Positions 12,226 to 51,288 of a DNA stretch of 64,000 nt are shown here, piece after piece. The translations under genes and the position numbers were made by a program. Numbering within the stretch: position 1 is the first letter of the stretch; each line of letters opens with the position of its first letter. Origin of the DNA: Patescibacteria group bacterium (GTDB lineage Bacteria; Patescibacteriota; JAHJAL01); contig JBMORM010000025.1 of assembly GCA_049322675.1 (NCBI GenBank), positions 128,520-192,519 on the forward strand. Direction: 5' to 3'. The notes under the pieces were generated by a model. That model searched no databases. It was not told the origin of the DNA and was given only the letters and a program-made list of their open reading frames with translations.

Positions 12226-13192
12226 ATATTTTGTTTTCATCCTTGTTTTTTTATTAATTTTTAATTCAGTAAATTTTTCGGGGCAGGTTAAGGCACAGGC
12301 GGCTCAAAGCTGGAATCACATGGGAGGAAATCCCAACCAACTCTCTTTTTATGAGACGTTGGTTTTCATGGGATACTCCAAGTCCGAGGCCGGGCAACTG
12401 GCTGAGGATTTTAAAAGTGGAAAGTTCGAGGTGACTCTGAGAGAACATGGTATTATTTACAAAGTCATGACGTTTGGTTTCAAAGAAACAATGACCAACG
12501 TTATGACAAACTGGCAGGAGGGAAGTTCATATCCAGTGGCACACTGGAAAAATACCTCTAAAGGGCCGTTGGACTATTATGCTTGGTCGTGCAAAAATGT
12601 TGGTTGGCCAGAATTAACGGTTCCGACTCCGCCACCAACACCTCCGACAGTAGTCCCGACACCACCGCAGACACCTCCTCCAACACCTCCGACAGTAGTC
12701 CCGACACCACCGCAGACACCTCCTCCAACACCTCCGACAGTAGTCCCGACACCACCGCAGACACCTCCTCCAACACAGCCGCCCACGCCTCCTCCGACTC
12801 CGCCCCAGACACCCCCGCCAATTACTTTCAGTAAGGGGTCAATTCCGACTCCGGCAGCAGTTGTGATTGGGCGGCCGCCGTTTATTCCTCCGGTTGATAT
12901 ACCGGAACCGGAGGATAACGGGACGCCTTGTCCTACGGGGTCACCTACAGTGGTGCCGACGCAAAATTGTGATCCGGGGGGTACTCCAGCTCCCACCCCG
13001 CCGCTTCCAGCTCCTACCCATCTTCCCATTACTCCAGTCCCCGGGGCTCCTACGCCCCCACCTCTTCCTACTCTGATTCCGGTTGTGACTCCCGTGCCTA
13101 CTGGCGGCACGGTGGTCACAGTTCCGACTTATCAACCAGTATCTGGGGGAACCCCGGCCCCCACGCCTCCTTTACCCGGGGTAAAAAAATAA
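12218..13192 (+). CDS. Secreted Pro/Thr-rich repeat protein (extensin-like linker)
   Basis: Perfect SD GAAGGAGGTG before ATG 12218; signal peptide; (PPTVVPTPPQTPPPT)x3 encoded by a perfect 45-bp tandem repeat. Confidence 0.55.
   Translation: MNKYFVFILVFLLIFNSVNFSGQVKAQAAQSWNHMGGNPNQLSFYETLVFMGYSKSEAGQLAEDFKSGKFEVTLREHGIIYKVMTFGFKETMTNVMTNWQEGSSYPVAHWKNTSKGPLDYYAWSCKNVGWPELTVPTPPPTPPTVVPTPPQTPPPTPPTVVPTPPQTPPPTPPTVVPTPPQTPPPTQPPTPPPTPPQTPPPITFSKGSIPTPAAVVIGRPPFIPPVDIPEPEDNGTPCPTGSPTVVPTQNCDPGGTPAPTPPLPAPTHLPITPVPGAPTPPPLPTLIPVVTPVPTGGTVVTVPTYQPVSGGTPAPTPPLPGVKK
12641..12775 (+). repeat. Perfect 3 x 45-bp tandem repeat (cctccgacagtagtcccgacaccaccgcagacacctcctccaaca)
   Basis: Three identical copies with a partial fourth upstream, in frame inside the Pro-rich CDS. 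Confidence 0.85.
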
Positions 13193-13227
13193 ATATATAA
13201 ATATATAAATTTTTGGCCATTTGAGCG

Positions 13228-13290
13228 TTGTCTCTTTTTTAATTTCTTATATTAAAAAAGAGCAACGCTCTTTTTTTGCCCTTTTTTCGG
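13228..13290 (+). terminator. Rho-independent terminator (long hairpin plus T-run)
   Basis: GAGCGTTGTCTCTTTTTTAAT-ttcttat-ATTAAAAAAGAGCAACGCTC followed by TTTTTTTG. Confidence 0.7.
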
Positions 13291-13356
13291 TTGTTATAAA
13301 CTATTGATTTATTTTATATATTATGTTACAAACAGTATCAATAAATAGGAGGAATT

Positions 13357-13977
13357 ATGGAAATAAAAAATGAAAATAGGTTTGGTAAGTTAATTGCATT
13401 TGAAGGTATTGATAATGTTGGAAAAAGTAGTCATGTCGAAGAGTTGGCCAAGAAATTGAAGATGATGAACATACCTTGCGAAGTGGCCAAAGAAATGACA
13501 TCGCCTTTTGGGAAAATTATTAGGGAAAATTTAAAGAAATCCAATTTTTCATCCCATTTGAAAACCTTGTTGTTTGCGGCTGATCGAGTAGAGCTGGTGG
13601 AAAGAATGGTCAAGCCGTGTTTGGAAAAAAATGGGATTGTATTAGCTGATCGTTGGACGATGTCGGCAATTGTTTATCGAACCGTGGAAGGATTTGATGT
13701 TGATTATGTGGCGATGGTTAATTCGAAAACTATAAATCCGGATCATATTTTCTTGCTTGATTTGCCGGCGGAATTGTCAATAAAGAGAGGAGAATCGACG
13801 GGTAAATTTACGCCGTATAGTTTGGATTTTTTGCATAAGGCACGAGGTGAATATTTAAGATTGGCAAAACTTGATAATAATATTGAGATAATTGATGGTA
13901 GTGAGGATTTTAAAAAAATTAATTCTCATTTATTTGAACGAATTTTGGAAATTATTGGTTCAAGGAAACAAGGTTAA
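13357..13977 (+). CDS. tmk: Thymidylate kinase
   Basis: SD AGGAGG. P-loop IAFEGIDNVGKSS, FAADRVELV, DRWTMSAIVY and LID region LDLPAE all align with Tmk. Confidence 0.7.
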   Translation: MEIKNENRFGKLIAFEGIDNVGKSSHVEELAKKLKMMNIPCEVAKEMTSPFGKIIRENLKKSNFSSHLKTLLFAADRVELVERMVKPCLEKNGIVLADRWTMSAIVYRTVEGFDVDYVAMVNSKTINPDHIFLLDLPAELSIKRGESTGKFTPYSLDFLHKARGEYLRLAKLDNNIEIIDGSEDFKKINSHLFERILEIIGSRKQG

Positions 13978-14753
13978 TCAATCAATTTTATAATATCTTC
14001 TTTTGTTTTTGGTTTTCCTTCTGAACCGAGTAGCCACAAGGCTCGATCAAAACTAATCCAATCGACATTTGCGTTTCGACAGGCTCTTTGCCAAAGCTTT
14101 TTGATGGCGTTAATATTTGTTTCTGTTTGATCATTTTCGTTTATATTGGAGAAACCTAGGAGACGGGCGATACGGATATCATGAACATCGACTGGTTGCG
14201 GGATTTTGTCGAGATCGGGGAATTCTAGTTTGAAGTGCGAAGTCATTGCTCGGAAAAATAAGTTGCCAATTTTTGGCCCCATGCCGCGAAATTCGCGGAT
14301 TTTTTTGATAGTATTTGTGGCGGAATTTGTTTCAGAGAATATATTTAACGGATTATTTGCATATTTTTGTCGTAGTAGATGAGAATTTTTTTGGAATCTG
14401 ATAACAGCTTCGTTGGGATAGCGTGGTTTAAAATATGTAGTAATAATCTGAAACAATTGTTGATCATTTTGATTGAGGATATAGTCGGGAGTGAAAAATT
14501 GTGGCGTTTGTTGGTGGAGAATAATTGAGCCTTGGTATAAAATTTGTCCTTTCATGGCGTAATCGAGTTGCACAGTATAAAATGTCCAGTTGGCTTGTTC
14601 TATAGGAGTGATATTTTTTGGAATGTAGTCTTCGATGTTCTTGGTATTGGTAAATAAACCTTCACGTTTTAAAAATTTAGAAGTTAGTTTGTCAGCAAAT
14701 TCAGAGGGAGTGATTGACGGTTGAAATTTTTCAATAAAATTTAAATTTTTCAT
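13974..14753 (-). CDS. HhH-GPD-like base-excision DNA glycosylase family protein (putative)
   Basis: Helix-hairpin-helix block IREFRGMGPKIGNLFFRAM followed by PVDVHDIRIARLLG, resembling LPGVGxKTA...VDTHVxRVxxRLG. No Fe-S Cys cluster. Confidence 0.4.
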   Translation of the reverse strand: MKNLNFIEKFQPSITPSEFADKLTSKFLKREGLFTNTKNIEDYIPKNITPIEQANWTFYTVQLDYAMKGQILYQGSIILHQQTPQFFTPDYILNQNDQQLFQIITTYFKPRYPNEAVIRFQKNSHLLRQKYANNPLNIFSETNSATNTIKKIREFRGMGPKIGNLFFRAMTSHFKLEFPDLDKIPQPVDVHDIRIARLLGFSNINENDQTETNINAIKKLWQRACRNANVDWISFDRALWLLGSEGKPKTKEDIIKLID

Positions 14754-14876
14754 AAGTGTTTTATTATTTTTTGATTTACATTATTATTTTACCTTATTAT
14801 TTAAGGTTTGTTTTGTGATTTATAAATGATGGAGTGACATGACATTTTTCTTTACCTGGATTTAATGCGGGTTATA

Positions 14877-14905
14877 TTACATTAAAGATAATTTAGAGTT
14901 ATAAT
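14877..14905 (+). promoter_or_regulatory. Near-consensus sigma70 promoter TTACAT-17-TATAAT for hicBA
   Basis: Seen directly in the sequence, 12-33 nt upstream of the hicB start candidates. Confidence 0.5.
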
Positions 14906-14937
14906 AGAATTGTTGATTGGATATTAATATTTTTTTT

Positions 14938-15156
14938 ATGACTTATCGTTTTACAACTATTATTACCAAAGAAGGCAAATGGTATGTGGCGCGCTGTTTG
15001 GAGCTGGAAGTGGTTAGTCAGGGGAAGACGGTGGAAGAGTCGCAGAAGAATCTGAAGGAAGCGGTGGAGCTGTTTTTGGAGGATCAACCGAATCCCCGGA
15101 AATTTGCTACAAAATCTTATCCAATTGTGACTACGTTGGAATTGAATCATGCCTAA
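14938..15156 (+). CDS. hicB: HicB-family antitoxin (UPF0150)
   Basis: YVARCLELEVVSQGKTVEESQKNLKEAVELFLE is the typical HicB N-terminal RNase H-like fold signature. The track start is TTG at 14917; ATG is at 14938. It overlaps hicA by 8 nt. Confidence 0.7.
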   Translation: MTYRFTTIITKEGKWYVARCLELEVVSQGKTVEESQKNLKEAVELFLEDQPNPRKFATKSYPIVTTLELNHA

Positions 15157-15373
15157 AACTATTTCGGGAAAAAAATTGGTGCGGATTTTATGTCGTTATT
15201 GGGGTTTTGTTTCGGTTTCGCAAAGAGGCAGTCATATAAAATTGAAGTTTTGCGATAAAAACAAAGATATTGTTGTGATTGTGCCTTTGCATTCGGAATT
15301 GGCGCGGGGAACTTTGAAGGGGATTTTAAAGCAGGCTCGGATTGGTGAAAAAGAGATTAGGGGGTATTTTTGA
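15149..15373 (+). CDS. hicA: HicA-family mRNA interferase toxin
   Basis: GKKLVRILCRYWGF...QRGSHIKL...LKGILKQA matches the HicA/YcfA dsRBD-like consensus (SGKELIKLLEKNGW..RQKGSHH...GTLRSILKQAGL). Confidence 0.75.
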   Translation: MPKTISGKKLVRILCRYWGFVSVSQRGSHIKLKFCDKNKDIVVIVPLHSELARGTLKGILKQARIGEKEIRGYF

Positions 15374-15401
15374 TTAAATCTTTTTTTTGTGATTGTACTG
15401 A

Positions 15402-15432
15402 AACGATTTTTGGATAAAATCGTCTTTTTTTT
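15402..15432 (+). terminator. Rho-independent terminator after hicA
   Basis: ACGATTTT-tggata-AAATCGT followed by CTTTTTTTT. Confidence 0.6.
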
Positions 15433-15500
15433 GTGTTGGGCTACCGTAATGGTCGCCCTTACTGATGGGGTGGATGCATGGTCATGTGTTGTTTTGTATC

Positions 15501-15528
15501 GTAGGGGCGGTTCATGAACCGCCCCTAC
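15501..15528. repeat. Perfect 28-nt GC-rich palindrome GTAGGGGCGGTTCATGAACCGCCCCTAC
   Basis: It shares the GTAGGGGCG/CGCCCCTAC arms with the elements at 8483-8543. Confidence 0.7.
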
Positions 15529-15607
15529 AAAAAATGATCATATAATCTTGATATTTTCTTAATTTTATTTTATAATATTAGGATATTTTTATTTTTAGTG
15601 AGTACAT

Positions 15608-17326
15608 ATGGGAAATGGTAATACAGATGATAATATTAGACTAAATGCTTTGGAACAACCAGGTGTCAAACAGAGAATTGATGCTTTTTTTCGAGAAAAT
15701 CGCAATAGTATCAATCGCCTTTTGCCAAAAGAGTGGTATCGAGGGCCGGATATATATGCTGATTGTGATTTTGATAAAAAAACCAGAGAATTAATAGATA
15801 TTCAGGTTGTATTTGAGGTTGATTTGGACTTGCCAATTAGGCCTGAATATAGAGGAACCTATATCGAAGCAAAGTTATATGAATATTTTTTTAGAAATAT
15901 TGTTGAGTACAAACATAACAATGATTTTAATGATTATGTCCAGGAAAAACCTGAAGCCGGTTCAAACCCGAGAAAATTACTGAGTTGGGCGAGAAATGAA
16001 GCCGAGGGATTGTATAGATTGCATGGGAAAAATCTCGTTGCGGTGATGGTAAAAGCCGAAGAAGATGTCAAAGAATTGCAAGCCGAATGCGAAAAAAATA
16101 ATATTGCGGAAATGGATTTGTTGGATCAGGAGAAATGGATAAATAGAGTTTTTTTGGAGAAGTTTAAAGAAAACAAAAATATTAGTTCATATGCCGATTT
16201 GATGGTATTGAAAGAAAGATATCAGGAGGTGTTGGGTTGGTTAAAGTTGCTTGTCGGCTATCGTTGGCAAAATGCCAATCCGGGACTGGAGAGCGTTTTT
16301 TTGGAAAAAGACGTTTTTGAACGATCGGCCAGAAAAGTCAATCGTGCTTTCAATGCTGATGCTTTGCGATTGTCGAGAGCCGATTGGATCCAAAACATTG
16401 AAAATTATCGAGAGGTGATAGATGCGATTATCTCTGAGATACAAGTTGCCGAAAGGCAATTACCAGCCAATGATTTGTACAAGAGAGAAAAATATGTTTT
16501 GGGTGAGTTGATATATGGATTGTCATCGAAGTCAAGAGTAGGGGAAAAGATGCCTATTTTGACTGATAAATTGGTGGAGATGTGTATCAGGCTTGATGTT
16601 TTTAAAGATCAGATTGATTTTGAAAGGTTTGGTCAGGATATGCATGCTGTTGGGTTGGACATGAATCCGGGTAGAAATGAATATGAATTGGCAAAAGAAA
16701 AGGTTATAGAACAATTGTTTTCGGCGGGTTATTTTTATCAAAATGATTCACGAGATTACAGTAAGTTCAAATTTTTGGACAGAAATTATATCCCGACTGA
16801 ATACGAAGATGTTGATTTGTTTAGTTTGGAATTTTTACTGAGAAATACTTATGATAGTTTCCGTCACAAGTCATCAATGCATAAATATATTGGTGATTTG
16901 GTAACTTGTCGATCAATCAGGGATATTGAATATGAAAAAGTGGTGGTTGATTATTCCAGTAGCGAGTTACCTGGTTTTTTGGATATTCATGGATATAGGA
17001 AATATCTGAAATATTCTTTGAGTCTGAAATATTTGGAAAAAATACTGTCTTTGTTTGAACGACCGGATATTATTCAATTGGTTGAAAAATATGATAAAGT
17101 AGGTGATTTTGCTGATTTCTGCAAATTAAAAGATAGGATTTCCAGTGGTGATTGCCAACAAATTGACAATCTGGTTATGAGATTCGAAAGTATTGTGAAA
17201 GAGAGAAATTTTGATAGAAACAATGAGGTGGTGGTTGATTTAATGACGAGCGATTTGCGTGATTTGGTCAGAAGGATTAGGGATTTGTATCGTGATTACA
17301 ATCAGGTGGTAAAATTGTTGATTTAA
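15608..17326 (+). CDS. Hypothetical cytoplasmic protein, 572 aa, no recognisable domain
   Basis: A long ORF with ordinary codon usage. No TM segment, no signal peptide, and no motifs I can assign. Confidence 0.4.
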   Translation: MGNGNTDDNIRLNALEQPGVKQRIDAFFRENRNSINRLLPKEWYRGPDIYADCDFDKKTRELIDIQVVFEVDLDLPIRPEYRGTYIEAKLYEYFFRNIVEYKHNNDFNDYVQEKPEAGSNPRKLLSWARNEAEGLYRLHGKNLVAVMVKAEEDVKELQAECEKNNIAEMDLLDQEKWINRVFLEKFKENKNISSYADLMVLKERYQEVLGWLKLLVGYRWQNANPGLESVFLEKDVFERSARKVNRAFNADALRLSRADWIQNIENYREVIDAIISEIQVAERQLPANDLYKREKYVLGELIYGLSSKSRVGEKMPILTDKLVEMCIRLDVFKDQIDFERFGQDMHAVGLDMNPGRNEYELAKEKVIEQLFSAGYFYQNDSRDYSKFKFLDRNYIPTEYEDVDLFSLEFLLRNTYDSFRHKSSMHKYIGDLVTCRSIRDIEYEKVVVDYSSSELPGFLDIHGYRKYLKYSLSLKYLEKILSLFERPDIIQLVEKYDKVGDFADFCKLKDRISSGDCQQIDNLVMRFESIVKERNFDRNNEVVVDLMTSDLRDLVRRIRDLYRDYNQVVKLLI

Positions 17327-18017: not shown

Positions 18018-21000
18018 ATGGTGAACAAAATGAAAAATTTATTTGCAAGTGTTCCTAAAAAGGTTAAATCCTTTTTGGTGGGAGTGGTGGCAATGGGTAT
18101 GTTATTGCCGACTATTTTACCTGGATTGGGAAATTCTGCAATGGCTGCGTCTCCTGTGTTTAATGATCAAGCCAATGATTATGCGACATTGAGAGTAGCC
18201 AATGCCAATAATCCCAGTGTTTTTAGTACCAGCGTGAATGCCAATCCTGGAGATCAGGTAATTTATAGTATTTATGTTCATAATACTGTTCTGGATACAA
18301 CCGCTATCAATACTGCTGTAAGAGCGGCTATTGATACTCAATATGCGACTGCGCATGGTGCAATGGCAACAGTTTGGGCAGAAAATGCCAGTCCGGTAGC
18401 TGGTAATGCCATTGTTTATACAGGTAATACCAGAACAAAAATGGAATATTTGCCCAATTCTGCTTATAGGTTTGTTACTGGTTCAAGCAATTGGGAGCCG
18501 ATGCCTGATGGGGTAATCGGGACTGGTTTGGTTTTGGGAAATGTTCAAGGTTGCTGGGAATATGTACAGCAGGTAATTTTTAGAGCAACTGTTGTTGCAG
18601 AACCTGTTCAACCTGCTGTAATTGGTATTAACAAACAAGTAGCTTTGGTTACCACAGGTGGTAATTCTTATGTTGAAAATGTTACTGCTAAAAATGGTGA
18701 CACTGTTTCTTTCAGTTTGAGTTTGGCAAATACCGGAGGTAGTGCTGCTACCAACGTAGTTGTTAAAGATGTATTGCCAAGTGGATTGGAATTTATCTCG
18801 GGATCTACCAAATTGAATGGTAATCCTGTGGCTGACACTTTGTTTACGACCGGTGTCAAAATTGATAGTTTAGCTGTTGGCGCAGTACCTTCTATTACTT
18901 TCCAAGCGAAAGTGACTGCAAGTACACCTGGTGTTTTGACAAATACGGGCACGGCGACGGCAGATAGTTTGGGACAGGTAAGTGATACTGCTACTGTGAC
19001 TATTCAACAAGTTTTGCAACCGGCTTTGGGTATTGCTAAAACTGTTTTAAATAATAGTTTAGTTGGCGGCACTTTTGCTGAAAATGCCAATGCTAAGACT
19101 GGTGAAACCGTGACTTTCAAGTTGATTGTAAGTAATACCGGTCAGTCTGAGGCCAAGAATGTGGTGGTGGCTGATCAGGTTCCGGCCGGATTGGCTTATG
19201 TCAGCGGTTCTACCAAGGTGGATGGAGTGGCGGACAATACCAATGCGATCACCGGGAATGGTTTAAATATTGCCAATATTGCCGCTGGAGCTTCCAAAAC
19301 GGTTACTTTTGAAGCGACTGTTTCGGCTACTTTGGCTCAGACTATTACCAATACTGGTACAGCCAGGGCGGAAAGTGTTAATCAGGTTGGTGATACGGCA
19401 ACTGTAACAGTTCAACAAGCTGGCCAACCCGTAATCACTATCGCCAAGACAGTGTCTTTGGGTGATGGATCCAGCAATTTTATTGAAAGTGTCAACGCGG
19501 TCAATAACGATATAGTACGTTTTCGTTTGATTGTAAGTAATAATAGCGGAGTTTCCGCTGACAATGTAAAAGTTTGGGATGGTTTGCCAAGTGGTTTAAC
19601 TTACATCGACAATTCAACTACTTTGGATGGAGCGGCACAATCTGGCAATGCGATTGTAAATAGTGGTATTACTTTGGGTACGATGACCAATGGTTCAACT
19701 CATACAGTTATTTTCAATGCTCGAGTCAATTCCAATAGTACTACTTTGACCAACTATGGCCGAGCCAATATCAATGGGACTAGCCAAGTGGAAGATCCAG
19801 CTACTGTAGTGGTGGGTGGAGCGAGTAATACTACCTTGTCTTTAGACAAGCAAGTTGCTCGAGGTGAAAATGGAACTTCTTATTATGAAAGTGTTTCGGC
19901 AGAAAATAGTGAATATGTTCGTTTCCGTATGGTGGTGCGAAATACCGGTAATGTTAGAGCCGACAATGTACAAATTGCCGATAATTTACCAAGTGGCTTG
20001 ACTTATGTGTCTAATTCTACTTACCTCGATGGGGTAAGACAAAATGATACTATAACTTCCAGTCGTTTGGATTTGAGTAATATGGATCCGGGTGTAAGTC
20101 GTACTGTTACTTTCAATGCTCGAGTCAATACTTCGTCCAATTCGACTATTACCAATGAAGCTACTGTTACATCGGATAATGCGACTTTGGTCAGGGATAC
20201 AGCGCAAGTTCAGGCCAACGGTTCTGATAGTGATCCATATTTGGAAATTACCAAAGAAGTTGATCAGGCAGTTGCAGATCCAGGTGACGAATTGAGATAT
20301 ACTATTCGAGTTCGAAACACCGGATCCGGTAATGCCACCAATGTTCGTATAGTTGATGATTTGCCGGAAAGAGTTCGCTATGTTTCGGGTTCATTGACTA
20401 TAACCGGAGATGGTGATGTCGAAGATGATGATTTGTTTGACGATGGTGTGATTATTGATAGACTGGAACCCGGAGATGATGTCTTGATTCGTTTTACGGC
20501 TCGTGTTGATAGTGATATTTCAGGAAATATGACTTTGGAAAATGTGGCTATTGCTCGTGATGATCAAGGTGATCGAGCCGAGGATGAGGTGGTGACAGAA
20601 ATTGAACAGGATGAGGCATATTTGGATATAGACAAGCAAGTTGACAAGTCAAGGGCCAATCCCGGTGATGAATTGCGCTATACAATAACAGTCCGCAATA
20701 CCGGATATGCCAATGCGACAAATGTCAGAGTATATGATGATTTGCCAAGTTATGTTGAAGTGGTGAGTGGCAGTTTGAGTGTTTCCGGTGATCATATTTC
20801 TTCCAGCGATTTGTTTGATAATTATGTTCGAGCCAGTTATCTGGAAAGAAATGATGAAATCAATATTACTTTTAGAGCCAAGATTAGAAGTGATATTACT
20901 ACTGATATGACTTTGGACAATGTGGCACGAGTGACTGCTGATGATGGATTGAGCGATAGGGATGTTGCTTCTACTTATATAGGCGCCAATGTTTTGCAAC

Positions 21001-21548
21001 CGAGTTTCAAGTTATCAAAGTTGGTTCGTAATGAGACCAAGGGTGAATCAACATTCAATCAATCAAATACTTCTGACCCTGGTAATGTTATGGAATACAA
21101 GATTACCTTGACCAATAATGGAAGTAGCCGTCTGACCGGCGTCAAGTTGAATGATATTTTGCCAAGTGGTTTGATGTATTTGGGTGGTACTGCTAAAGCC
21201 AGTATGAACAACTACGACATATCTGGTGATTGGAACAAGGTTGTTGAGCAGGGTGGTGTATTGTTGCCTGACATGAATGTCAATGATATTTTTACTTTGG
21301 TGTTCAAAGTGAAATCGAAAACTGATATTGCTGCCAATTCAACTTTAGTGAATACGGTCAATGTGGTGGCTGATCAAAATGTAAATGCTCAGGCGACGGC
21401 TAGTACATCATTTACACAAGTTGCTCAACCGCAGGAACTTCCCAAATCTGGTCCAGAAGTTGCTTTGGCTGGGTTTATCTTTTTGGCAGTTTCGTCAATA
21501 TTTTGGTTTGTCAGAGAAAAATGGCTTTTGACGACACAGATTATGTAA
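18018..21548 (+). CDS. Giant cell-surface protein with tandem DUF11-type repeat domains and a C-terminal LPxTG-like sortase signal (LPKSG + TM + REKW)
   Basis: N-terminal signal peptide. At least 8 repeats of ~110 aa with the DUF11 signature (TYTITVxNTG...ATNVxVxDxLPxGLxYVSGS). C-terminus ELPKSGPEVALAGFIFLAVSSIFWFVREKW. Confidence 0.65.
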   Translation: MVNKMKNLFASVPKKVKSFLVGVVAMGMLLPTILPGLGNSAMAASPVFNDQANDYATLRVANANNPSVFSTSVNANPGDQVIYSIYVHNTVLDTTAINTAVRAAIDTQYATAHGAMATVWAENASPVAGNAIVYTGNTRTKMEYLPNSAYRFVTGSSNWEPMPDGVIGTGLVLGNVQGCWEYVQQVIFRATVVAEPVQPAVIGINKQVALVTTGGNSYVENVTAKNGDTVSFSLSLANTGGSAATNVVVKDVLPSGLEFISGSTKLNGNPVADTLFTTGVKIDSLAVGAVPSITFQAKVTASTPGVLTNTGTATADSLGQVSDTATVTIQQVLQPALGIAKTVLNNSLVGGTFAENANAKTGETVTFKLIVSNTGQSEAKNVVVADQVPAGLAYVSGSTKVDGVADNTNAITGNGLNIANIAAGASKTVTFEATVSATLAQTITNTGTARAESVNQVGDTATVTVQQAGQPVITIAKTVSLGDGSSNFIESVNAVNNDIVRFRLIVSNNSGVSADNVKVWDGLPSGLTYIDNSTTLDGAAQSGNAIVNSGITLGTMTNGSTHTVIFNARVNSNSTTLTNYGRANINGTSQVEDPATVVVGGASNTTLSLDKQVARGENGTSYYESVSAENSEYVRFRMVVRNTGNVRADNVQIADNLPSGLTYVSNSTYLDGVRQNDTITSSRLDLSNMDPGVSRTVTFNARVNTSSNSTITNEATVTSDNATLVRDTAQVQANGSDSDPYLEITKEVDQAVADPGDELRYTIRVRNTGSGNATNVRIVDDLPERVRYVSGSLTITGDGDVEDDDLFDDGVIIDRLEPGDDVLIRFTARVDSDISGNMTLENVAIARDDQGDRAEDEVVTEIEQDEAYLDIDKQVDKSRANPGDELRYTITVRNTGYANATNVRVYDDLPSYVEVVSGSLSVSGDHISSSDLFDNYVRASYLERNDEINITFRAKIRSDITTDMTLDNVARVTADDGLSDRDVASTYIGANVLQPSFKLSKLVRNETKGESTFNQSNTSDPGNVMEYKITLTNNGSSRLTGVKLNDILPSGLMYLGGTAKASMNNYDISGDWNKVVEQGGVLLPDMNVNDIFTLVFKVKSKTDIAANSTLVNTVNVVADQNVNAQATASTSFTQVAQPQELPKSGPEVALAGFIFLAVSSIFWFVREKWLLTTQIM

Positions 21549-33676: not shown

Positions 33677-36379
33677 ATGGGAAATTTTTATTACATAGGT
33701 TTGTTTTTGTTATTTTTGGTGGTATGGGTAGGAATAGTGTACCTTGCTTTTTTGGCGTGGCAATATCGCAGATATAGGACATGGTTAAAAAACCAAAAAT
33801 ACCAGTGTTTGTTAATAAAAGTTCCTAAAAAAAATGAAAAAAATGCGTTATCGGCGGAGCAAATGTATGCGAGTTTGCATGGAATAATGCGCAATCGCTG
33901 GGTAATGTTTTGGGAAGGAAGCATGCAGGAACATATAAGTTTTGAGATAGTTTCTTCAAATAAGTATATAAAATTTTATGGATTTGTTCCGGATTATTTG
34001 GTTGAATTTGTTGAAGGTCAGATTTATGCTCAGTATCCCACTGTTTTGATTGAGAAGGTAGATGATTATATTTCAGAGTATAAGTATCAAAATAAAGACT
34101 TTTCTTCATGTGAGTTGGTATTGGATAAAGATGAGGTTTATCCGTTGAGAACATTTGAAACATTTGATGTTGATCCTTTGGCAGGTATTACTGCAGTTTT
34201 AAGTAAATTGGGTGATACGAAAAATCAGATATGGTTGCAGTTTTTGATTCGACCGGTAAATAATCATTGGCAGCATAGAAGTCAGAAGATAATAAACAAA
34301 ATTAGAGGCGGTGTTGACACATTATCTTTTTTTGGTTTTGTTGGAAGCTTTTTAAGTTTGATTGTTAATCATATCTTAAATCCAGGGAGCACGAATGAGA
34401 AAGCTTCAGAAAACAAGAAGGTGTTATCTGGTCCTGAAGAGGAAGCAATTGCAGAAATAAATAAAAAATCAGTAAAATTAGGATTTGAGACAAAAATTAG
34501 AATTATTGCTTTTGGAGATAGCTCTATTGACGCTAAAAGTAAATTGCAGTCAATTATTGGGACGTTTAAACAATTTAGTCTTACCAATCTTAATAGTTTG
34601 AGTGCCAATCGTATTAGCGTGGGGAATTTTAGAGATTTGGAAGTGTATAAAAATAGAAGTTTTGCAGGAAAAGGTTTTGTGTTGAATACTGCCGAATTAG
34701 CGAGTTTATTTCATTTGCCAAGTATTTCTGTTGAGACGCCAACTATCGTTTGGTCAAATAATAAAGTAGCTGAGCCGCCAAGCAATTTGCCGACAGTAAA
34801 TAATTCAAATTTAGCTGATCTAACTGTATTTGCAAAAACTGATTTTAGAGAATTGGAGAATGTTTTTGGAATAAAAACTGAAGATAGGTCGAAACATGTT
34901 TATATCGTGGGAAAGACAGGTATGGGTAAAACTTCTTTGTTGCAAAACATGGTTATTGACGATATGAGAAAGGGCAGGGGAATAGCTGTGGTAGATCCGC
35001 ATGGTGACTTTGTTGATACGGTATTGAATTATGTTCCTTCAAACAGAATAAATGATGTTGTTTTATTTGATCCTGGAGATAGAGATAATCCGATTGCCTT
35101 TAATTTACTTGAGAATGTTGCTGATGATTATAAACCTATTATTGCTTCAGGTTTAATTGCGATTTTTAAAAAACTTTGGCATGATTCCTGGGGACCAAGA
35201 TTGGAACATATATTGCGCTATACTTTTTTGGCTTTATTAGATTATGAGGGAAGTACATTTTTGTGTGTTCCTCGGTTGCTTTCAGATGAAGTTTTTAGAA
35301 ATGAGGTTATTAATCATATTAAGGATCCGGTAGTAAAAGATTTTTGGGAAGTCGAGTTCAATGGTTATACTGATAAACTAAGGCAGGATGCGATATCTCC
35401 TATTCAAAATAAAATTGGTCAATTTTTGGCAAGCTCGACGATTAGAAATATTGTTGGGCAGCCAAAAACGGCTATCAATATCAGGGAGGTGATGGATAGC
35501 AAGAAGATCTTGTTGGTTAAAGTTGCAAAGGGTGTAGTTGGAGAGGACAATGCTGCATTGTTGGGTGCAATGATAATTACTAAAATCCAATTGGCTGCTA
35601 TGAGTAGGGCGGATATATCTGAAGAAAAGCGTATTCCTTTCAATCTGTATGTTGATGAATTTCAAAATTTTGCTACTGAAAGTTTTGCGTCTATTTTATC
35701 GGAAGCTAGAAAATATAAATTGAATTTGCATGTTGCGAATCAATATATTGAACAGATGGAAGATGTAGTTCGTGGGGCTGTATTTGGTAATGTTGGTACT
35801 TTGATTACTTTTAGAATCGGAGCTACAGATGCGGATTATTTATCTAAAGAGTTTGCACCTACTTTTTTGGCAGAAGATTTGACCAACTTGGAGAAATTTC
35901 ACATTTATCTGCGTATGACAATTGATGGGATTTCTAGTCCGGCTTTTTCCGCGGTTACTTTAAGTTTGCCAGTAGAAAAAACAAATAATGTTGATAAAGT
36001 ACTTTTTTCTTCTAGGGAAAAGTATGGCACTAAAAGAGATTTTGTTGAGACAAAAATTAAGGAGTGGTCTGAAGTATTGGATTCTAAAAAAAAGAAGGTG
36101 AACAACAATAAGTGCGGAAAAAAAGGAAATATGGTGATGAAGAAGACTGATGAGTCGGTTGTTGAAATGGATCAAGAAAAAAGAGAACAATTGTTAACGA
36201 AGTTGAAGGCATTTCAAGAAGAGAGAACCAGTAATAAAGATGACAATATTAAGATTGATTTGGACAAAGAAGCTGTTAAAAGAAAGTTGGTTGAGTTTAA
36301 TAATACAAGAATGAAAAAGTCAGATTTTAGCGAGAAAATAATTGAGGATAATGATGAGGAAATTATTATCGAACAATAG
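33677..36379 (+). CDS. Membrane-anchored P-loop ATPase of the FtsK/HerA/TraG-VirD4 (type IV coupling protein, TraG-D_C type) superfamily
   Basis: N-terminal TM segment. Walker A VGKTGMGKTS; Walker B LYVDEFQNF; then the EARKYKLNLHVANQY...Q arginine-finger block typical of TraG/TraD/HerA. Lys/Glu-rich C-terminal tail. Confidence 0.5.
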   Translation: MGNFYYIGLFLLFLVVWVGIVYLAFLAWQYRRYRTWLKNQKYQCLLIKVPKKNEKNALSAEQMYASLHGIMRNRWVMFWEGSMQEHISFEIVSSNKYIKFYGFVPDYLVEFVEGQIYAQYPTVLIEKVDDYISEYKYQNKDFSSCELVLDKDEVYPLRTFETFDVDPLAGITAVLSKLGDTKNQIWLQFLIRPVNNHWQHRSQKIINKIRGGVDTLSFFGFVGSFLSLIVNHILNPGSTNEKASENKKVLSGPEEEAIAEINKKSVKLGFETKIRIIAFGDSSIDAKSKLQSIIGTFKQFSLTNLNSLSANRISVGNFRDLEVYKNRSFAGKGFVLNTAELASLFHLPSISVETPTIVWSNNKVAEPPSNLPTVNNSNLADLTVFAKTDFRELENVFGIKTEDRSKHVYIVGKTGMGKTSLLQNMVIDDMRKGRGIAVVDPHGDFVDTVLNYVPSNRINDVVLFDPGDRDNPIAFNLLENVADDYKPIIASGLIAIFKKLWHDSWGPRLEHILRYTFLALLDYEGSTFLCVPRLLSDEVFRNEVINHIKDPVVKDFWEVEFNGYTDKLRQDAISPIQNKIGQFLASSTIRNIVGQPKTAINIREVMDSKKILLVKVAKGVVGEDNAALLGAMIITKIQLAAMSRADISEEKRIPFNLYVDEFQNFATESFASILSEARKYKLNLHVANQYIEQMEDVVRGAVFGNVGTLITFRIGATDADYLSKEFAPTFLAEDLTNLEKFHIYLRMTIDGISSPAFSAVTLSLPVEKTNNVDKVLFSSREKYGTKRDFVETKIKEWSEVLDSKKKKVNNNKCGKKGNMVMKKTDESVVEMDQEKREQLLTKLKAFQEERTSNKDDNIKIDLDKEAVKRKLVEFNNTRMKKSDFSEKIIEDNDEEIIIEQ

Positions 36380-43229: not shown

Positions 43230-44192
43230 TTATACCTGTTTTTTGAGGTGCGATAAAATTTTTTCAAAATCCTTTGGCGGGTTGATTTTAAAAATGAGTT
43301 TTTTCTTGTCACGCGGATTTGAGATTTTAAGATAGTAGGCATGAAGCAATTGTCGGTTGATTTCTAGCATTTGAGATATTTGTTTTGATTCTTTTGTACA
43401 ATAGGTTTGGTCGCCGATGATTGGCATATTCTCTGATAGGAGATGCACTCTAATTTGATGGGTGCGTCCGGTTTTTAAATTGATATCAATTAAGCTAAGG
43501 TTGTTATTTTTGTAATTAAAATTTTTGATAATTTTGTATTCTGTTGTGGCGGTTTTGCCTTTGCCAAGATGGGTAGTGATAAATTTTTGGCGGTGATGAG
43601 GATCGCGGCAGATATTTTTTGTGATCACTCCCCTACTCTTTCGATTGTTATTGATAATTAGGGCGTAATATTTTTTGATCCAATGTCGATTTTTGATTTC
43701 ATCCTGAAAAAAATTGAGAGAATTTTGATTTTTGGCAATTAGAATCAAGCCGGATGTATCTTTGTCTAAACGATGAACTATCCCGGGACGAAATATATTG
43801 TTTATGGGTTTGAAATTGGCAAATTTGGGATAGTGATAAAGGATAATATTGATCAATGTGTCGTTTTGGTGACCATGACTGGTGTGAACCGGTAAGAAAG
43901 GTGGTTTATTGATTAGAAGAAAATCTGTATTTTCAAATATAATATCGAGATTCCCTTTTTGGGGTTCTATTTTTAGTATTTCGGTTTTGGGAATAATGAT
44001 TGTTATTTTTTCGTTTTGTTTTATTTTGTGACTATTTTTATTGATAATTTTATTGTTTATCGAAACTTGTTTGTTTTTGATTAAACTGCCAATAAAAGAT
44101 CTGGAGTATTCAGGCAGTTGGTTGGAAATTTCTTTGTCTAAACGATTATTTATTTGAGCAATGATTTTGATTATTTTTGGTTTCTTTGTCAT
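43230..44192 (-). CDS. RluD-like pseudouridine synthase (S4 domain + RluA catalytic domain)
   Basis: N-terminal S4-like region and HRLDKDTSGLILIAKN. Confidence 0.75.
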   Translation of the reverse strand: MTKKPKIIKIIAQINNRLDKEISNQLPEYSRSFIGSLIKNKQVSINNKIINKNSHKIKQNEKITIIIPKTEILKIEPQKGNLDIIFENTDFLLINKPPFLPVHTSHGHQNDTLINIILYHYPKFANFKPINNIFRPGIVHRLDKDTSGLILIAKNQNSLNFFQDEIKNRHWIKKYYALIINNNRKSRGVITKNICRDPHHRQKFITTHLGKGKTATTEYKIIKNFNYKNNNLSLIDINLKTGRTHQIRVHLLSENMPIIGDQTYCTKESKQISQMLEINRQLLHAYYLKISNPRDKKKLIFKINPPKDFEKILSHLKKQV

Positions 44193-45169
44193 ATATTTTG
44201 CAAAATTGATCTAAGTTCCGATGTGTTGTTGCATAGGTATAGTTTTTGTCGAATTTCAGTAGCATTGGGAATATTTTTGATGTACCAGCCGAAATGTTTT
44301 CTCATCTGAATAATTGCTTGTTCGTCGGCAGATTTACGGTGATCTTTTCTTAATGATAATTCTTTGATTAATAAATTGGTGTGTGTCAGAATTATTTTTT
44401 TTATTTTTTTGATATTGGTTTTGGGTCTGATTTTTTTTCCCAGTAGTAGTTTTTTTATTTGTTCAAAAATCCAGGGTTGACCAAGAGCGCCGCGGCCAAT
44501 CATGATGCCGCTGGGAGTGTATTTTTTGATATATTTTATTGCTTGTTGCGGATCGATTATGTCCCCATTGCCGATGACTGGTATATTTAGTTTGTCAGCA
44601 ATTGTTTTAATGTAATCCCAGTCGCTAGAACCGGCGTATTGTTGTTTAACGGTACGTCCGTGAAGGGTGAGACAGTCAATATCTGTTTTTTTTATTATGT
44701 TTTGATAGAAAGATGGTGGAAGTTTTTTGTCGTATCCAATTCTGGTTTTTAGTGATACTGGGATATTGACTGATTTTTTGAGGGCAGATAATATTTCTAT
44801 CAGTTTGTCGGGGTCTTGCAGTAGTTTGCCGCCATTACCTGAAGCCAGCATACTGCGGGCTGGGCAGCCGCAATTGAAATCGAGACCGTCGGCGCCGTTT
44901 TTTTCTAATTCTTGTGCGATAGTAATTGTTTCTGGAATAGTATGTCCGAATACTTGGACAATGATTGGTTTTTCGTATTTGGTAAAGTATGTTTTATTGA
45001 TTGTTTTTTTGTTTTGGTATTTTAAACCCATTGAAGAAACCATTTCGGTAAAAACAACATCGGCGCCAAATTTCTTTAGAATTCGGCGTTGTGAACTATT
45101 GGTTATGCCATGGAGAGGGGCGGCACATAGTATAGGATGGTTTTGGTCCCATGTAAATTTTGTTTTCAT
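44189..45169 (-). CDS. dus: tRNA-dihydrouridine synthase
   Basis: LAPLHGITN...FGADVVFTEM, the catalytic Cys context NCGCP, and LKTRIG. Confidence 0.8.
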   Translation of the reverse strand: MKTKFTWDQNHPILCAAPLHGITNSSQRRILKKFGADVVFTEMVSSMGLKYQNKKTINKTYFTKYEKPIIVQVFGHTIPETITIAQELEKNGADGLDFNCGCPARSMLASGNGGKLLQDPDKLIEILSALKKSVNIPVSLKTRIGYDKKLPPSFYQNIIKKTDIDCLTLHGRTVKQQYAGSSDWDYIKTIADKLNIPVIGNGDIIDPQQAIKYIKKYTPSGIMIGRGALGQPWIFEQIKKLLLGKKIRPKTNIKKIKKIILTHTNLLIKELSLRKDHRKSADEQAIIQMRKHFGWYIKNIPNATEIRQKLYLCNNTSELRSILQNI

Positions 45170-45402: not shown

Positions 45403-46821
45403 TTATAAACTATTTTTTAGTAATTGATAACCGGAAGAGGTATCTTCGATAGAATAACCGGCTTTTTCTATGGCTTGTCTGAATTCATCAGCTTTTTCAA
45501 AATCTTTTTTTTGTCTGGCTTGTTCGCGTTTTTCGGCTAGGTCTTTTATTTTTTTTGGGATAACAATTTTTTTAGGCAAAGCAACAAATAAAACACCGAG
45601 AACTTGATCGTATTTTTCCAGTAGTTCTAAGGTTTTTTCGGCAATACGCTGACCGATTTTATTGTCGTCTATTAGAATATTTATTTTTTTGATTAGATTG
45701 TGCATGACGGCTAGGGCTTTAGGGGTGTTCAAATCGTCTTCGATAGCGTCAAAAAATTGGTCCTCGGATGAAACGAAAAGACTTTCATAGCTGTTGGCAG
45801 GAATATTGGGAATATCATTTTTGACGTTTCGTAAGCGAATAATAAAGTTATCGATGTTTTTTAGTACATTATGGGCGGCTTGTAGGCTATCCCAGGTAAA
45901 ATTCATTTTGGAACGGTAGTGACATCCGAGATATAGATATCTTAAATCTCGACCAGAATATTTTTTTTCCTTGATATCTCTAAGATTGTAAAAATTGTTG
46001 AGACTTTTGCCCATTCTTTGGCCGTTGATGAGAACGTGTTCGTTGTGGAGCCAATATTTAACAAACTGATGTCCAGAATAACATTCTGATTGAGCAATTT
46101 CGTTTTCGTGATGTGGAAAAACCAAATCAATACCGCCGGTATGAATATCGATAGTTTCGCCGAGATTTTTCATGCTCATAGCTGAGCATTCTATGCTCCA
46201 TCCTGGTCGGCCGTCGCCGAATGGAGATGGCCAAAAATTTTCTCCGTCTTCGGGAGTTTTGCTTTTCCAGAGAACAAAATCGGCGGCGTTATCTTTGTCG
46301 TATTCCTGGTGATCAACCCTAAATCCGATTTTTAGGCCGCTTTTGTCGAGGTGTGCCAATTTGCCATAGTCAGGGAATTTGAGAATGGAAAAATAAACAG
46401 ATCCATCTTGCCCGACATAAGCGAATTTTTTATCAATCAATTTTTGAATTATTGTTATTATTTCGTCGATGTATTCTGTGGCAGGGGTAAAAGTCGGAGG
46501 TATTGTGTTTAGTTCTTGCAAATCTTGTTTGAAAGCGTCGATATATGTTTTTGTAAAATCTTTTAAAGAGATTTTTTGGGTTTGGCTGGCTTTGACTGTT
46601 TTGTCGTCGATGTCGGTTAGATTCATTACTTGTTTGACTGAATATTTTTTGTATTCAAGATAACGGCGTAATACGTCGGGGAAAATATAGGCGAAGAGAT
46701 TGGCTATGGTAACGTAATTGTAGACTGTTGGTCCACAGATATACATCTTCACTTCGTTTTCTGTGATGGGAATAAATTCTTCTTTTTGGCGAGTGAGGGT
46801 GTTGTATAGTTTGAGAGTCAT
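45403..46821 (-). CDS. cysS: Cysteinyl-tRNA synthetase homolog with a degenerate HIGH motif (TIAN)
   Basis: Aligns with E. coli CysS throughout (NTLTRQKEEF, CGPTVY, HIECS to SIECS, FPHHENE, KMSKS to RMGKS). The HIGH tetrapeptide position reads TIAN, verified on the DNA at ~46699-46710. Confidence 0.75.
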   Translation of the reverse strand: MTLKLYNTLTRQKEEFIPITENEVKMYICGPTVYNYVTIANLFAYIFPDVLRRYLEYKKYSVKQVMNLTDIDDKTVKASQTQKISLKDFTKTYIDAFKQDLQELNTIPPTFTPATEYIDEIITIIQKLIDKKFAYVGQDGSVYFSILKFPDYGKLAHLDKSGLKIGFRVDHQEYDKDNAADFVLWKSKTPEDGENFWPSPFGDGRPGWSIECSAMSMKNLGETIDIHTGGIDLVFPHHENEIAQSECYSGHQFVKYWLHNEHVLINGQRMGKSLNNFYNLRDIKEKKYSGRDLRYLYLGCHYRSKMNFTWDSLQAAHNVLKNIDNFIIRLRNVKNDIPNIPANSYESLFVSSEDQFFDAIEDDLNTPKALAVMHNLIKKINILIDDNKIGQRIAEKTLELLEKYDQVLGVLFVALPKKIVIPKKIKDLAEKREQARQKKDFEKADEFRQAIEKAGYSIEDTSSGYQLLKNSL

Positions 46822-46837
46822 GATAGTATTTTAATTT

Positions 46838-47428
46838 TTAATTTCTATTGTCCATAGCTTTGGTAAGAGTTATTTCGTCTGTGTATTCCAAGTCTACGCC
46901 CATGGGGATTCCAAAAGCCAGACGGCTGATTTTTATTGGGTATTGTTCGAGGATTTTGAAAATGTATGTAGCCGTGGCTTCTCCTTCCAAGGTGGGATTG
47001 GTGGCAATGATTACTTCTTTGATAATATCGTTTCCGGCTCTATTTTTTAATTTTTCCAAGGTTAGGTGTTCTGGTCCGATGCCGTCGATTGGCGATAGAG
47101 CTCCATGCAAAACGTGATATAAACCATTGTAATGTGTTTTTTCGATGGCAAGAATATCTAGTGGTTGTTCGATAACGCAAATGATTGATTGGTCACGTTT
47201 GTCGTTTTGACAAATATGGCAGGGATTTGTTTCGGAATAATTGAAACACAATTGGCAGAGTTGAAGATTTTTTTTAAGGTTTGTTAGCGCATTTCCAAAA
47301 TCGATAGTTTCTTGTTCTGGTTTGTGAAGAAGATAATAAGTTAGGCGGCTGGCGGTTTTTTGTCCAATTCCAGGCAATTTGGCAAAGTGATTGATAAGGT
47401 TGTTGATTGATTGAGGAATGTGGGACAT
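46838..47428 (-). CDS. recR: Recombination protein RecR
   Basis: HhH KLPGIGQKTASRL, C4 zinc finger CQLC...CHIC, and a Toprim domain. The true ATG is at ~47428; the track start is a TTG inside the repeat element. Confidence 0.85.
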   Translation of the reverse strand: MSHIPQSINNLINHFAKLPGIGQKTASRLTYYLLHKPEQETIDFGNALTNLKKNLQLCQLCFNYSETNPCHICQNDKRDQSIICVIEQPLDILAIEKTHYNGLYHVLHGALSPIDGIGPEHLTLEKLKNRAGNDIIKEVIIATNPTLEGEATATYIFKILEQYPIKISRLAFGIPMGVDLEYTDEITLTKAMDNRN

Positions 47429-47429
47429 A

Positions 47430-47500
47430 TTTTCAATTTCCAATTTTCAATTTCCAATTTTCAATTTCCAATTTTCAAATATATTTTGAAAAATAATTTG
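47430..47500. repeat. Heptamer tandem repeat (TTTTCAATTTCCAA x3.5) plus hairpin TTTTCAAATATATTTTGAAAA at the recR start
   Basis: Seen directly in the sequence; it supplies the spurious MEIEN N-terminus in the track. Confidence 0.65.
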
Positions 47501-49306: not shown

Positions 49307-50065
49307 TTACCAATTTAACTTGTCTTTGACGAAGTGACTGTAGCGACGGGAAACTGGTATGGTAATTTGATTAGTTAGCTCAAGTTGGTAGTTTGATTTT
49401 TGCCAGAGATACATGCGTGAAATATAGTCCAGATTGACTATAAATGATTTGTGGGTACGTAAAAAATTATCTGGTAGGTTTTTTTCTAAATCTTGGAGAT
49501 TGTAGTTGACTCTTTTACTGTCTTTTTGATGGTTATTGGCGAACACTAGTGGTCCTTCGGCGGCAAAATGAGTTAGATCTTTGAGTTGGAATATGTACCG
49601 ATCATTTGGGTTGGTACCGAAGGCAGTTATTTTTCCGCCAATAAATAAGTTGGTCGAATCGATTTTGGCTGGTAGTAAAAGTTGGGTTTTCTTTTTTTCG
49701 ATTTGATTTTTGATTTTGTTGATAGTAACTTGAAGGCGTTTGGGATCTGTGGGTTTTAATAGGTAGTCTATTGCGTTTAACTCGAAAGCTTTGACGGCAT
49801 ATTCGTCGTAGGCTGTAACGAAGACGATAATTATTGTGGGGAAATCTCGAATAATTTTTTGTGCAAGATCAATGCCGGAAATAAAGGGCATGTTGATGTC
49901 CAAAAAGACTAGAGAGATACTTTTTTCTTTAATTAGATTTAAGGCCTTTTCCGGATTATTCATGGTAAAGATTTTTTGCGTTGGGAAATATTCACTTAGT
50001 TGATATTTTAATTCATTGGTGGCTGGTTGTTCGTCATCAATGATTAATGTATTGATGTTTAACAT
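49307..50065 (-). CDS. LytTR-family response regulator
   Basis: REC domain (LIIDDE...VFLDINMP) plus a C-terminal LytTR DNA-binding domain. Confidence 0.75.
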   Translation of the reverse strand: MLNINTLIIDDEQPATNELKYQLSEYFPTQKIFTMNNPEKALNLIKEKSISLVFLDINMPFISGIDLAQKIIRDFPTIIIVFVTAYDEYAVKAFELNAIDYLLKPTDPKRLQVTINKIKNQIEKKKTQLLLPAKIDSTNLFIGGKITAFGTNPNDRYIFQLKDLTHFAAEGPLVFANNHQKDSKRVNYNLQDLEKNLPDNFLRTHKSFIVNLDYISRMYLWQKSNYQLELTNQITIPVSRRYSHFVKDKLNW

Positions 50066-50076
50066 GTTTGTATGTT

Positions 50077-51288
50077 TTAAAGTGGAATTTTGATAGTTAC
50101 GATTGACCCTTGTTTGGATGAGTTTATCTCCAGGAGGTTATTTTGTTGGTAAAAGTAGTAAAGTCTTCTGATGGTTCCGGCTAGACCCAGATGTTTTGAT
50201 TGACTAATTTTATTCAAAGTTTCTTTGTCTATGCCTTGACCATTGTCTTGAGTGATTAGGTATAAGAAATTTTGGTCTTTTTTGACAGATAGTTTTATTT
50301 GAACTGATTGCTGTCGTTTAATGTTGTGAGAAATAGCATTTTCGACAATTGGTTCCCATATGAGATTTGGTACGGTATGTCGATTATAGATGTCGGGTAT
50401 GTTTTTTATGATTTGCAGACGTTCACCAAATCTGGCGGTGGCAATAGCCAAATAGCTATCAATATTTTTTAATTCGTCAACAAGTGGCACTAACTCGCCT
50501 TGACGACGCAAACTACTGCGTAACAATGAAGATAATTCGATAATCAGGGTATGGGCTTTTTCCGGTTCGGTACGGGTGAGTGAGCCAATGGTATTGAGGG
50601 AATTGAAAAGAAAATGAGGATTGATTTGTGATTCCAGATTTTTGAGGCGAGTTTGGTTTTGCAAGTATAGAGTTTGCTCTCTTTTTTGGTAATCAATGAT
50701 GGAAAAGATGATATAAAGAAAGATTAAAACGCTGGCAACTTGTATTAAGATGACGATCAAGACGGAAGCGAAGTCTTCCCAAAATGTTTGATAGAGAAAA
50801 CCTTCAAGTAAAAAATAGATTATTCCGATTTGAAAACATGAGAAGACAAATTGCAGGCCGGCGGCGACGATCATTTTGTCTCGATGGTTTTGACGGACGT
50901 GGCTGAGTATGCCACTGATTATACCGGCACAAACGGTGAGTATGGCATATGGCCATGATAACGGGAAAAGGACATTGAGCATAATAGCCGCCACTCCTGA
51001 TACAACTAGGCTGACTCTTAGACCAGATAGGATGCCGGAAACGATGATTATCGGCAGGGCCAAGTCGAAAATCAGAAGTCTTTTTTCTCCATAATTGAAA
51101 AGTAGAGTTGCGATGTAAATCAAAAAATATGTAAGAGTAAGTAAGATTTTTTCAAATGGTTTGGGCTGAATGATGTTGAAGTTATTTTTGATGATTAAGT
51201 GACTGATTATAAAAGCAATAATAAGGACAATGGCTGTTCGGCCAGTAATATCCATAATCTGATTCCAGAAATATATATTGGTAGTCAT
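50077..51288 (-). CDS. LytS/YehU-type sensor histidine kinase
   Basis: Multi-TM N-terminus; His_kinase block NPHFLFNSLNTIGSL; HATPase_c (DNGQGI). Confidence 0.75.
   Translation of the reverse strand: MTTNIYFWNQIMDITGRTAIVLIIAFIISHLIIKNNFNIIQPKPFEKILLTLTYFLIYIATLLFNYGEKRLLIFDLALPIIIVSGILSGLRVSLVVSGVAAIMLNVLFPLSWPYAILTVCAGIISGILSHVRQNHRDKMIVAAGLQFVFSCFQIGIIYFLLEGFLYQTFWEDFASVLIVILIQVASVLIFLYIIFSIIDYQKREQTLYLQNQTRLKNLESQINPHFLFNSLNTIGSLTRTEPEKAHTLIIELSSLLRSSLRRQGELVPLVDELKNIDSYLAIATARFGERLQIIKNIPDIYNRHTVPNLIWEPIVENAISHNIKRQQSVQIKLSVKKDQNFLYLITQDNGQGIDKETLNKISQSKHLGLAGTIRRLYYFYQQNNLLEINSSKQGSIVTIKIPL

Follow-up and report, generated by a model that had tools for sequence, protein, structure and literature searches.

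The gene for cysteinyl-tRNA synthetase (CysRS), cysS, encodes T-I-A-N at the position of the class I HIGH signature in a 64,000-nucleotide stretch of DNA from a Patescibacteria group bacterium (assembly GCA_049322675.1, contig JBMORM010000025.1, forward-strand positions 128,520 to 192,519; hereafter the window, in whose own numbering positions are given). Textbooks define class I synthetases by the HIGH and KMSKS motifs. In the transition state the ATP phosphates are stabilised by the residues of HIGH and by the lysines of KMSKS; the first His and the Gly of HIGH are the most conserved positions. The gene most likely encodes the functional housekeeping CysRS of a small-genome lineage of Patescibacteria (the candidate phyla radiation, CPR), in which a non-canonical signature pair, TIAN with RMGKS in place of KMSKS, is compensated. 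Its catalytic activity and its status as the sole CysRS of the genome are both inferred. The coupling of the HIGH change to KMSKS → RMGKS and its recurrence in other lineages were absent from the earlier note that drew attention to the motif.

The protein is a CysRS on all features examined save the canonical HIGH signature (H-x-G-H/N). The TIGR00435 equivalog model matches residues 3-469 of 472 with 480.1 bits against a cut-off of 340. Among Pfam domains, the CysRS catalytic domain PF01406 is found with E = 1.9e-106 and the tRNA anticodon-binding domain DALR_2 with 7.5e-13 (49.3 bits against a cut-off of 22), while CysS_C scores 21.6 bits, slightly below its 23-bit cut-off. The zinc ligands, the KMSKS loop (as RMGKS), the DALR_2 and C-terminal regions, the fold and the locus are likewise those of a CysRS. 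The closest solved structures by sequence are the CysRS 8qhp (5.1e-114), 3tqo and the E. coli enzyme (1li5/1u0b), in which HLGH or HIGH stands opposite TIAN. An AlphaFold2 (AF2) model of the query was obtained with a predicted local distance difference test (pLDDT) of 92.9 and a predicted template modelling score (pTM) of 0.89, and is confident at all three altered segments too. Foldseek places 8qhp_A first for this model (E = 7.6e-43), followed by 1u0b, 3tqo, 1li5 and 9ys2, and the template modelling (TM) score against tRNA-bound 1u0b_B is 0.82. An identical protein (100%) is held at NCBI as MFZ5392587.1, labelled 'cysteine--tRNA ligase [Patescibacteria group bacterium]', from a 192,646-bp contig (P0389 in our comparison set), and the protein is also found unchanged in an independent Logan assembly.

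At the DNA level the plus-strand letters at 46699-46710 are attggctatggt, and their reverse complement is ACC ATA GCC AAT, the codons of residues 38-41, which align with H37-I-G-H40 of E. coli CysRS and HLGH of 8qhp. The earlier note had reported this motif correctly, as it had an end-to-end CysS with zinc ligands, HHENE and RMGKS, which we locate at C29, W208-S209-I-E-C212, H237-H-E-N-E241 and R269-M-G-K-S273 (Table 1). Its statement that both ATP-contacting histidines are lost goes too far. Position 4 of the motif is N in 121 of the 122 aligned sequences of the subfamily (the 120 proteins closest to the query were taken) and H in E. coli only, and HIGN occurs in 103 of 150 diverse cluster representatives. 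Relative to an ancestral HIGN, the changes would be H38T and G40A, with one His lost, not two. Nor is HIGH universal in class I, as had been claimed, since bacterial tryptophanyl-tRNA synthetase (TrpRS) has TIGN (PMC10201369).

Table 1. Features of the cysS locus, in window coordinates
Feature	Position	Strand	Description	Basis
cysS	45403..46821	-	472 aa + stop; full-length cysteine--tRNA ligase	Open reading frame, TIGR00435, PF01406, AF2 fold
HIGH-position motif T-I-A-N, residues 38-41	46699..46710	-	ACC ATA GCC AAT; subfamily ancestral state H-I-G-N	
C29, zinc ligand (E. coli C28)	46735..46737	-	Kept	
W208-S209	46195..46200	-	W208 = E. coli W205; S209 in place of near-invariant His (E. coli H206)	
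C212, zinc ligand (E. coli C209)	46186..46188	-	Kept	
H237-H-E-N-E241; zinc ligands H237, E241 (E. coli H234, E238)	46099..46113	-	Kept	
R269-M-G-K-S273, KMSKS-loop signature	46003..46017	-	K → R, S → G; M, second K and S kept	
recR	46838..47443	-	Conserved neighbour upstream of cysS; marks ancestral cysS locus	
dus (tRNA dihydrouridine synthase)	44189..45169	-	Conserved neighbour downstream of cysS	

The residues expected to handle cysteine are all in place. C29, C212, H237, E241 and W208 are invariant throughout the alignments, and W208 aligns with E. coli W205, which we take to be the tryptophan of the cysteine pocket. The altered positions are themselves highly conserved elsewhere: HIGH positions 1 and 3 are H and G in all 116 of the nearest sequences from outside the clade, and the column of E. 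coli H206 is His in 115 of these 116 and in all 150 diverse representatives. The query and its five nearest relatives (P0001-P0005, 69-96% identity) all carry five substitutions, H38T, G40A, H209S, K269R and S271G, none of which occurs in the next-nearest group (P0006-P0013, 63-69% identity). When the alignment columns conserved across the other 116 CysRS were screened for substitutions, 62 of the 66 columns with at least 99% conservation were kept by all six clade members, and exactly three were altered in all six, namely H38T, G40A and H209S. As a control, the sister clade with HIGN was screened likewise and showed no comparable fixed change at a column threshold of either 95% or 99%. The pattern is one of a focused rewrite of the ATP-site signatures, with the remainder of the enzyme fully conserved. 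Ser at the E. coli H206 position is limited to the query clade, save for one HIGN sequence (P0075). As a separate observation on the zinc site, three diverse CysRS (P0147, P0221 and P0232) have Asp opposite the second zinc ligand (E. coli C209), in the context 'CDHE'; this was seen in pairwise BLAST only, and is either real or a misalignment.

Gene order ties the TIAN gene to its canonical counterparts. The loci compared were the window, L002 and L007 for TIAN, and L003 and L005 for the HIGN sisters. The order YkuD-recR-cysS-dus-rluD-NTP transferase-secD-secF-rluA-x-tgt is common to the window and the contig of P0003 (GCA_016294905.1), both with TIAN, and the 4.4-kb contig of P0005 (GCA_018814055.1), also with TIAN, reads corA-cysS-dus-rluD and is consistent as far as it reaches. 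The HIGN sisters P0006 and P0010 match this gene order, the sole difference being corA between recR and cysS. Because the order is common to the HIGN sisters, the TIAN gene is the positional ortholog of canonical cysS. The corA gene (Mg/Co transporter) is present next to cysS in P0005, P0006 and P0010 and absent from the window and from P0003; a tie between its loss and TIAN is ruled out, since P0005 carries corA and TIAN together. It lies at L003 7090-8010, L005 7102-8010 and L007 1-904, sharing 10 nt with the beginning of cysS. Without corA, the gap between recR and cysS is 16 bp in the window (46822-46837) and ~80 bp on the contig of P0003.

The gene is under strong purifying selection, with a ratio of nonsynonymous to synonymous rates (dN/dS) of 0.066 by the Nei-Gojobori method against the 96%-identical relative (dN 0.021, dS 0.315). 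Root-to-tip distances on a neighbour-joining tree are 0.19-0.25 in TIAN and HIGN lineages alike, with no acceleration. At the five derived sites synonymous codons vary among the four relatives compared at the DNA level (ACC/ACT, GCC/GCT, AGC/AGT, AGA/CGT and GGC/GGA/GGT), and H → T, H → S and S → G each require two nucleotide changes. The cysteine share of predicted proteins is 0.88-0.99% on TIAN contigs versus 0.70-1.02% on HIGN sister contigs, and therefore the demand for Cys-tRNA is not changed in the TIAN lineage.

The Thr-first motif is not confined to this clade. An HMMER search was made over 1.84 billion cluster representatives and the best 150 were examined; beyond the query clade they include one TIAN (P0129), one TIGN (P0148) and one HIVN (P0247). 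When P0129 was used as the query, ~30 of its best 120 relatives had T-[ILV]-[GA]-N, every one with RMGKS. An alignment of 162 CysRS contains 37 with T-[ILV]-[GA]-N, 36 of which also have RMGKS. Taking the first residues of HIGH and KMSKS together, the pair is (T,R) in 36 sequences, (T,K) in 1, (H,R) in 15 and (H,K) in 110; Arg thus occupies KMSKS position 1 in 15 of 125 H-first enzymes. Further columns associated with Thr38 are position 37 (Pro or Val), 265 (Ile) and 271 (Gly). RMGKS, RMAKS and KMAKS variants are also seen in CysRS that retain HIGN. The other CysRS in 90 loci from diverse genomes and metagenomes all have HIGN, HLGN or HLGH, together with WH, and their KMSKS loop is more variable (KMAKS, KISKS, RMGKS and others). 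P0247 (H-I-V-N) keeps KMSKS and is in itself a natural exception at the 'adenine-clearance' position 3 of HIGH, with Val for Gly.

In 200/200 bootstraps without the motif columns, the query clade groups exclusively with its HIGN/KMSKS sisters. The query clade therefore gained T and RMGKS from HIGN/KMSKS ancestors, separately from the large 'P-T-x-G/A-N' group. P0148, which has TIGN with KMSKS, is a third case of Thr-first. Fitch parsimony on neighbour-joining trees gives 7-12 origins, a figure probably inflated by weak topology. In the other group the Thr-first cysS is located at recR-X-cysS-dus, on contigs of up to 848 kb; the 848-kb contig, the near-complete Ga0209724_1000002, bears P0319. 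Since RMGKS occurs with HIGN, while T without R is almost never seen, the data suggest that RMGKS came first, followed by H38T, G40A and H209S in that order. A scan of metagenome contigs for further members of the query clade found none besides JAEAMF010000261.1.

We propose the following mechanism. At the zinc site (C29, C212, H237, E241 and W208), ATP-dependent activation of cysteine is most likely retained, and transfer to tRNA-Cys would proceed via the DALR and C-terminal domains, which are intact. Remodelling has affected the ATP and transition-state site as a set, from HIGN to TIAN, from KMSKS to RMGKS, and from His to Ser after the pocket Trp. RMGKS may have been a permissive first step. 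Arg269, on a loop made more flexible by Gly271, could act with the Thr38 hydroxyl and Asn41 to replace the phosphate contacts of His38 and Lys269, and S209 may accommodate the extra methyl of Ala40. Bacterial TrpRS, which copes with a native TIGN, offers an analogy for such a takeover of contacts. In the cysteine ligase MshC the first KMSKS Lys and a HIGH histidine contact one phosphate-mimicking group (PMC9736012), the TIGN of E. coli TrpRS has been called 'equal to HIGH' (PMC10201369), and IleRS2 (an isoleucyl-tRNA synthetase) with G/AXHH is a housekeeping enzyme whose catalysis is only mildly affected (PMC10485003). Judged by TrpRS and IleRS2, signature variants of such a kind can be fully active.

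Several points weigh against a functional enzyme of compensated design. In several class I enzymes, activation becomes about 1000-fold slower once His at HIGH position 1 is mutated, and the conservation of Gly at position 3 reflects the space that adenine needs (PMC10485003); G40A could thus hinder ATP binding. A literature search on the function of E. coli H206 found nothing, and the MshC paper (PMC9736012) is silent on the equivalent residue. The monophyly of the six-member clade itself is recovered in 59/200 bootstraps.

A refinement that keeps the housekeeping role, which we regard as possible but rather unlikely, is that the remodelling was adaptive instead of neutral compensated drift. 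T-x-(G/A)-N with RMGKS, and with S209 in the query clade, would then have been selected for its ATP-site properties, as an alternative class I solution to adenylate formation that evolved repeatedly in CPR CysRS, the KMSKS-loop Arg taking the transition-state role of the HIGH His. The phenotype might be resistance to an unknown natural inhibitor of CysRS (aminoacyl-adenylate-like or otherwise directed at the ATP site), altered ATP affinity in energy-poor episymbionts, or an altered dependence on ATP or metal. IleRS2 lends this some credit, being a natural HIGH variant in which the inhibition constant (Ki) of mupirocin is up to about 1000-fold higher with near-normal catalysis (PMC10485003). 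The pair has also arisen repeatedly and been kept in diverged clades, although such recurrence could equally come from a compensated route that is easily taken from RMGKS. We know of no natural CysRS inhibitor, literature searches did not find one, and no resistance or biosynthetic gene was seen adjoining cysS.

The earlier note had also offered an inactive or regulatory paralog, with Cys-tRNA formed by another route, and, as its alternative, a lineage with a non-canonical CysS. It is the latter that our data support, and we consider it very unlikely that the gene encodes a dead or strongly impaired CysRS-like protein with a regulatory or moonlighting function, Cys-tRNA coming from another CysRS or pathway. 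Such a protein would fit the replacement of His at HIGH position 1, of the conserved Gly and of the near-invariant active-site His; in other class I enzymes, single mutations of that first His are very damaging (PMC10485003). However, TIAN is present in all six clade members, and the paralog is largely refuted because relatives bear the same substitution in an apparent housekeeping cysS at the conserved recR-cysS-dus locus, the ancestral one, where the sisters carry the canonical gene. The shared locus, the root-to-tip distances and the low dN/dS rule out a paralog that has accelerated or taken on a new function. The zinc ligands, the pocket Trp, the second Lys and the Ser of KMSKS, DALR_2 and the C-terminal domain are kept, as are nearly all of the near-invariant columns, and TrpRS functions with TIGN. 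A tblastn search for a second CysRS-like sequence found none within the 64-kb window or the related loci. A weak further point is that, among the CysRS matches listed, none has a longest contig equal in size to the 192-848 kb contigs of the T-first proteins. A peptide-pattern scan of genome contigs, with patterns tuned to close relatives, returned only the species representative of the clade (L008, 96%) and distant CysRS of other organisms, and cannot rule out a paralog. Rfam and tRNA scans of the window yielded one tRNA-Leu only, with no T-box or tRNA-Cys near cysS.

Still more improbable is a CysRS-derived ligase with a non-tRNA acceptor, on the pattern of MshC, which joins cysteine to glucosaminyl inositol (GlcN-Ins). 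MshC is a known CysRS homolog recruited to another acceptor, and its model aligns over residues 2-398 of the query, but that model (TIGR03447) scores 220.7 bits against a cut-off of 485.1 while the CysRS equivalog passes; the DALR_2 and C-terminal tRNA-binding domains are present, and the gene is in positional orthology with canonical cysS. The earlier note raised mis-assembly as a caveat, but an error of sequencing or assembly can be dismissed: the identical protein is found in the independent Logan assembly and at NCBI, and all five derived residues are shared with the five diverged relatives, in other assemblies and, in the four compared at the DNA level, with differing synonymous codons.

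Some further observations were made in passing. A distant CysRS gene at L087 6001-7416 (Ga0075113_1000029), in a locus of 25.5% GC, has six in-frame TGA codons, several of them at invariant Trp positions (PG-W-H, FT-W-D and K-x-W), and its organism apparently uses genetic code 4, in which TGA stands for Trp. Three CysRS homologs of 768-858 aa (P0121, P0128 and P0144) are fusion-like, with the CysRS part C-terminal after an N-terminal extension of ~300-400 residues. Within the window, a LytTR-type two-component pair (5TM-LYT histidine kinase and LytTR response regulator; 49307-51288, minus strand) lies upstream of YkuD-recR-cysS, as it does in TIAN and HIGN relatives. A 900-aa HerA/DUF87 ATPase of the TrwB/TraG coupling-protein type (33677-36379, plus strand) adjoins tgt, and is found in the same place in L001 and L002 (~900-904 aa). 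The plus strand also encodes a protein of 1176 aa with seven DUF11 repeats and other Ig-like or adhesin-type domains (18018-21548), probably a large surface protein, and, at 8675-17326, open reading frames of 799, 282, 324 and 572 aa with no Pfam match at E <= 0.001.

A literature search for Thr-first CysRS found no description of one; the single paper that mentions both TIGN and CysRS is a general review. The variant has arisen at least three times, a natural experiment where His → Thr occurs in CysRS almost only if the KMSKS loop is RMGKS; the T-R pattern suggests a particular compensatory pair, open to mutagenesis. It is a parallel to IleRS2, whose G/AXHH motif proved to explain antibiotic hyper-resistance. 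It also carries a caution for annotation, as motif checks alone are insufficient to call a CPR genome CysRS-deficient or a synthetase dead. The understanding of Cys-tRNA synthesis is unchanged and the biology of the organism is ordinary; the T-R coupling should be of moderate interest to synthetase specialists.

Compared with known systems, the query is nearest to canonical HIGN-subtype CysRS (TIGR00435; 8qhp, 1li5/1u0b), with which it has in common the architecture, zinc ligands, pocket Trp, DALR_2 and C-terminal domains, predicted fold and locus, and from which it differs in HIGN → TIAN, GWHIEC → GWSIEC and KMSKS → RMGKS. MshC (cysteine:GlcN-Ins ligase) has a CysRS-like catalytic domain and zinc-cysteine chemistry, as does the query, but keeps HLGH and KMSKS and is without the full tRNA-binding C-terminus of CysRS; the query falls below the MshC cut-off. 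IleRS2 with G/AXHH is a natural, widespread housekeeping class I enzyme that has HIGH positions 1 and 3 altered, keeps its activity and has more than one origin (PMC10485003). It moves the His to position 3 and so keeps a catalytic imidazole, whereas the query motif is without any His and is coupled to a change in the KMSKS loop; the link to mupirocin resistance is proven for IleRS2, and no such link is known for the query. Bacterial TrpRS is a fully active class I enzyme whose HIGH-equivalent motif, like that of the query, begins with Thr and ends with Asn (PMC10201369), and its TIGN indicates that the Thr/Asn combination is able to support adenylate formation. TrpRS belongs to another family, is dimeric, and keeps Gly at position 3 and KMSKS, where the query has Ala and RMGKS; the resemblance of the motifs is convergent, not homologous. 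The other Patescibacteria CysRS with P-T-[ILV]-[GA]-N (e.g. P0319, P0279, P0129 and P0299) share with the query both the Thr-first motif with RMGKS and the recR-X-cysS-dus locus, and differ from it in retaining the His aligned to E. coli H206 and, for the most part, in having Pro ahead of the Thr and Gly as the third motif residue.

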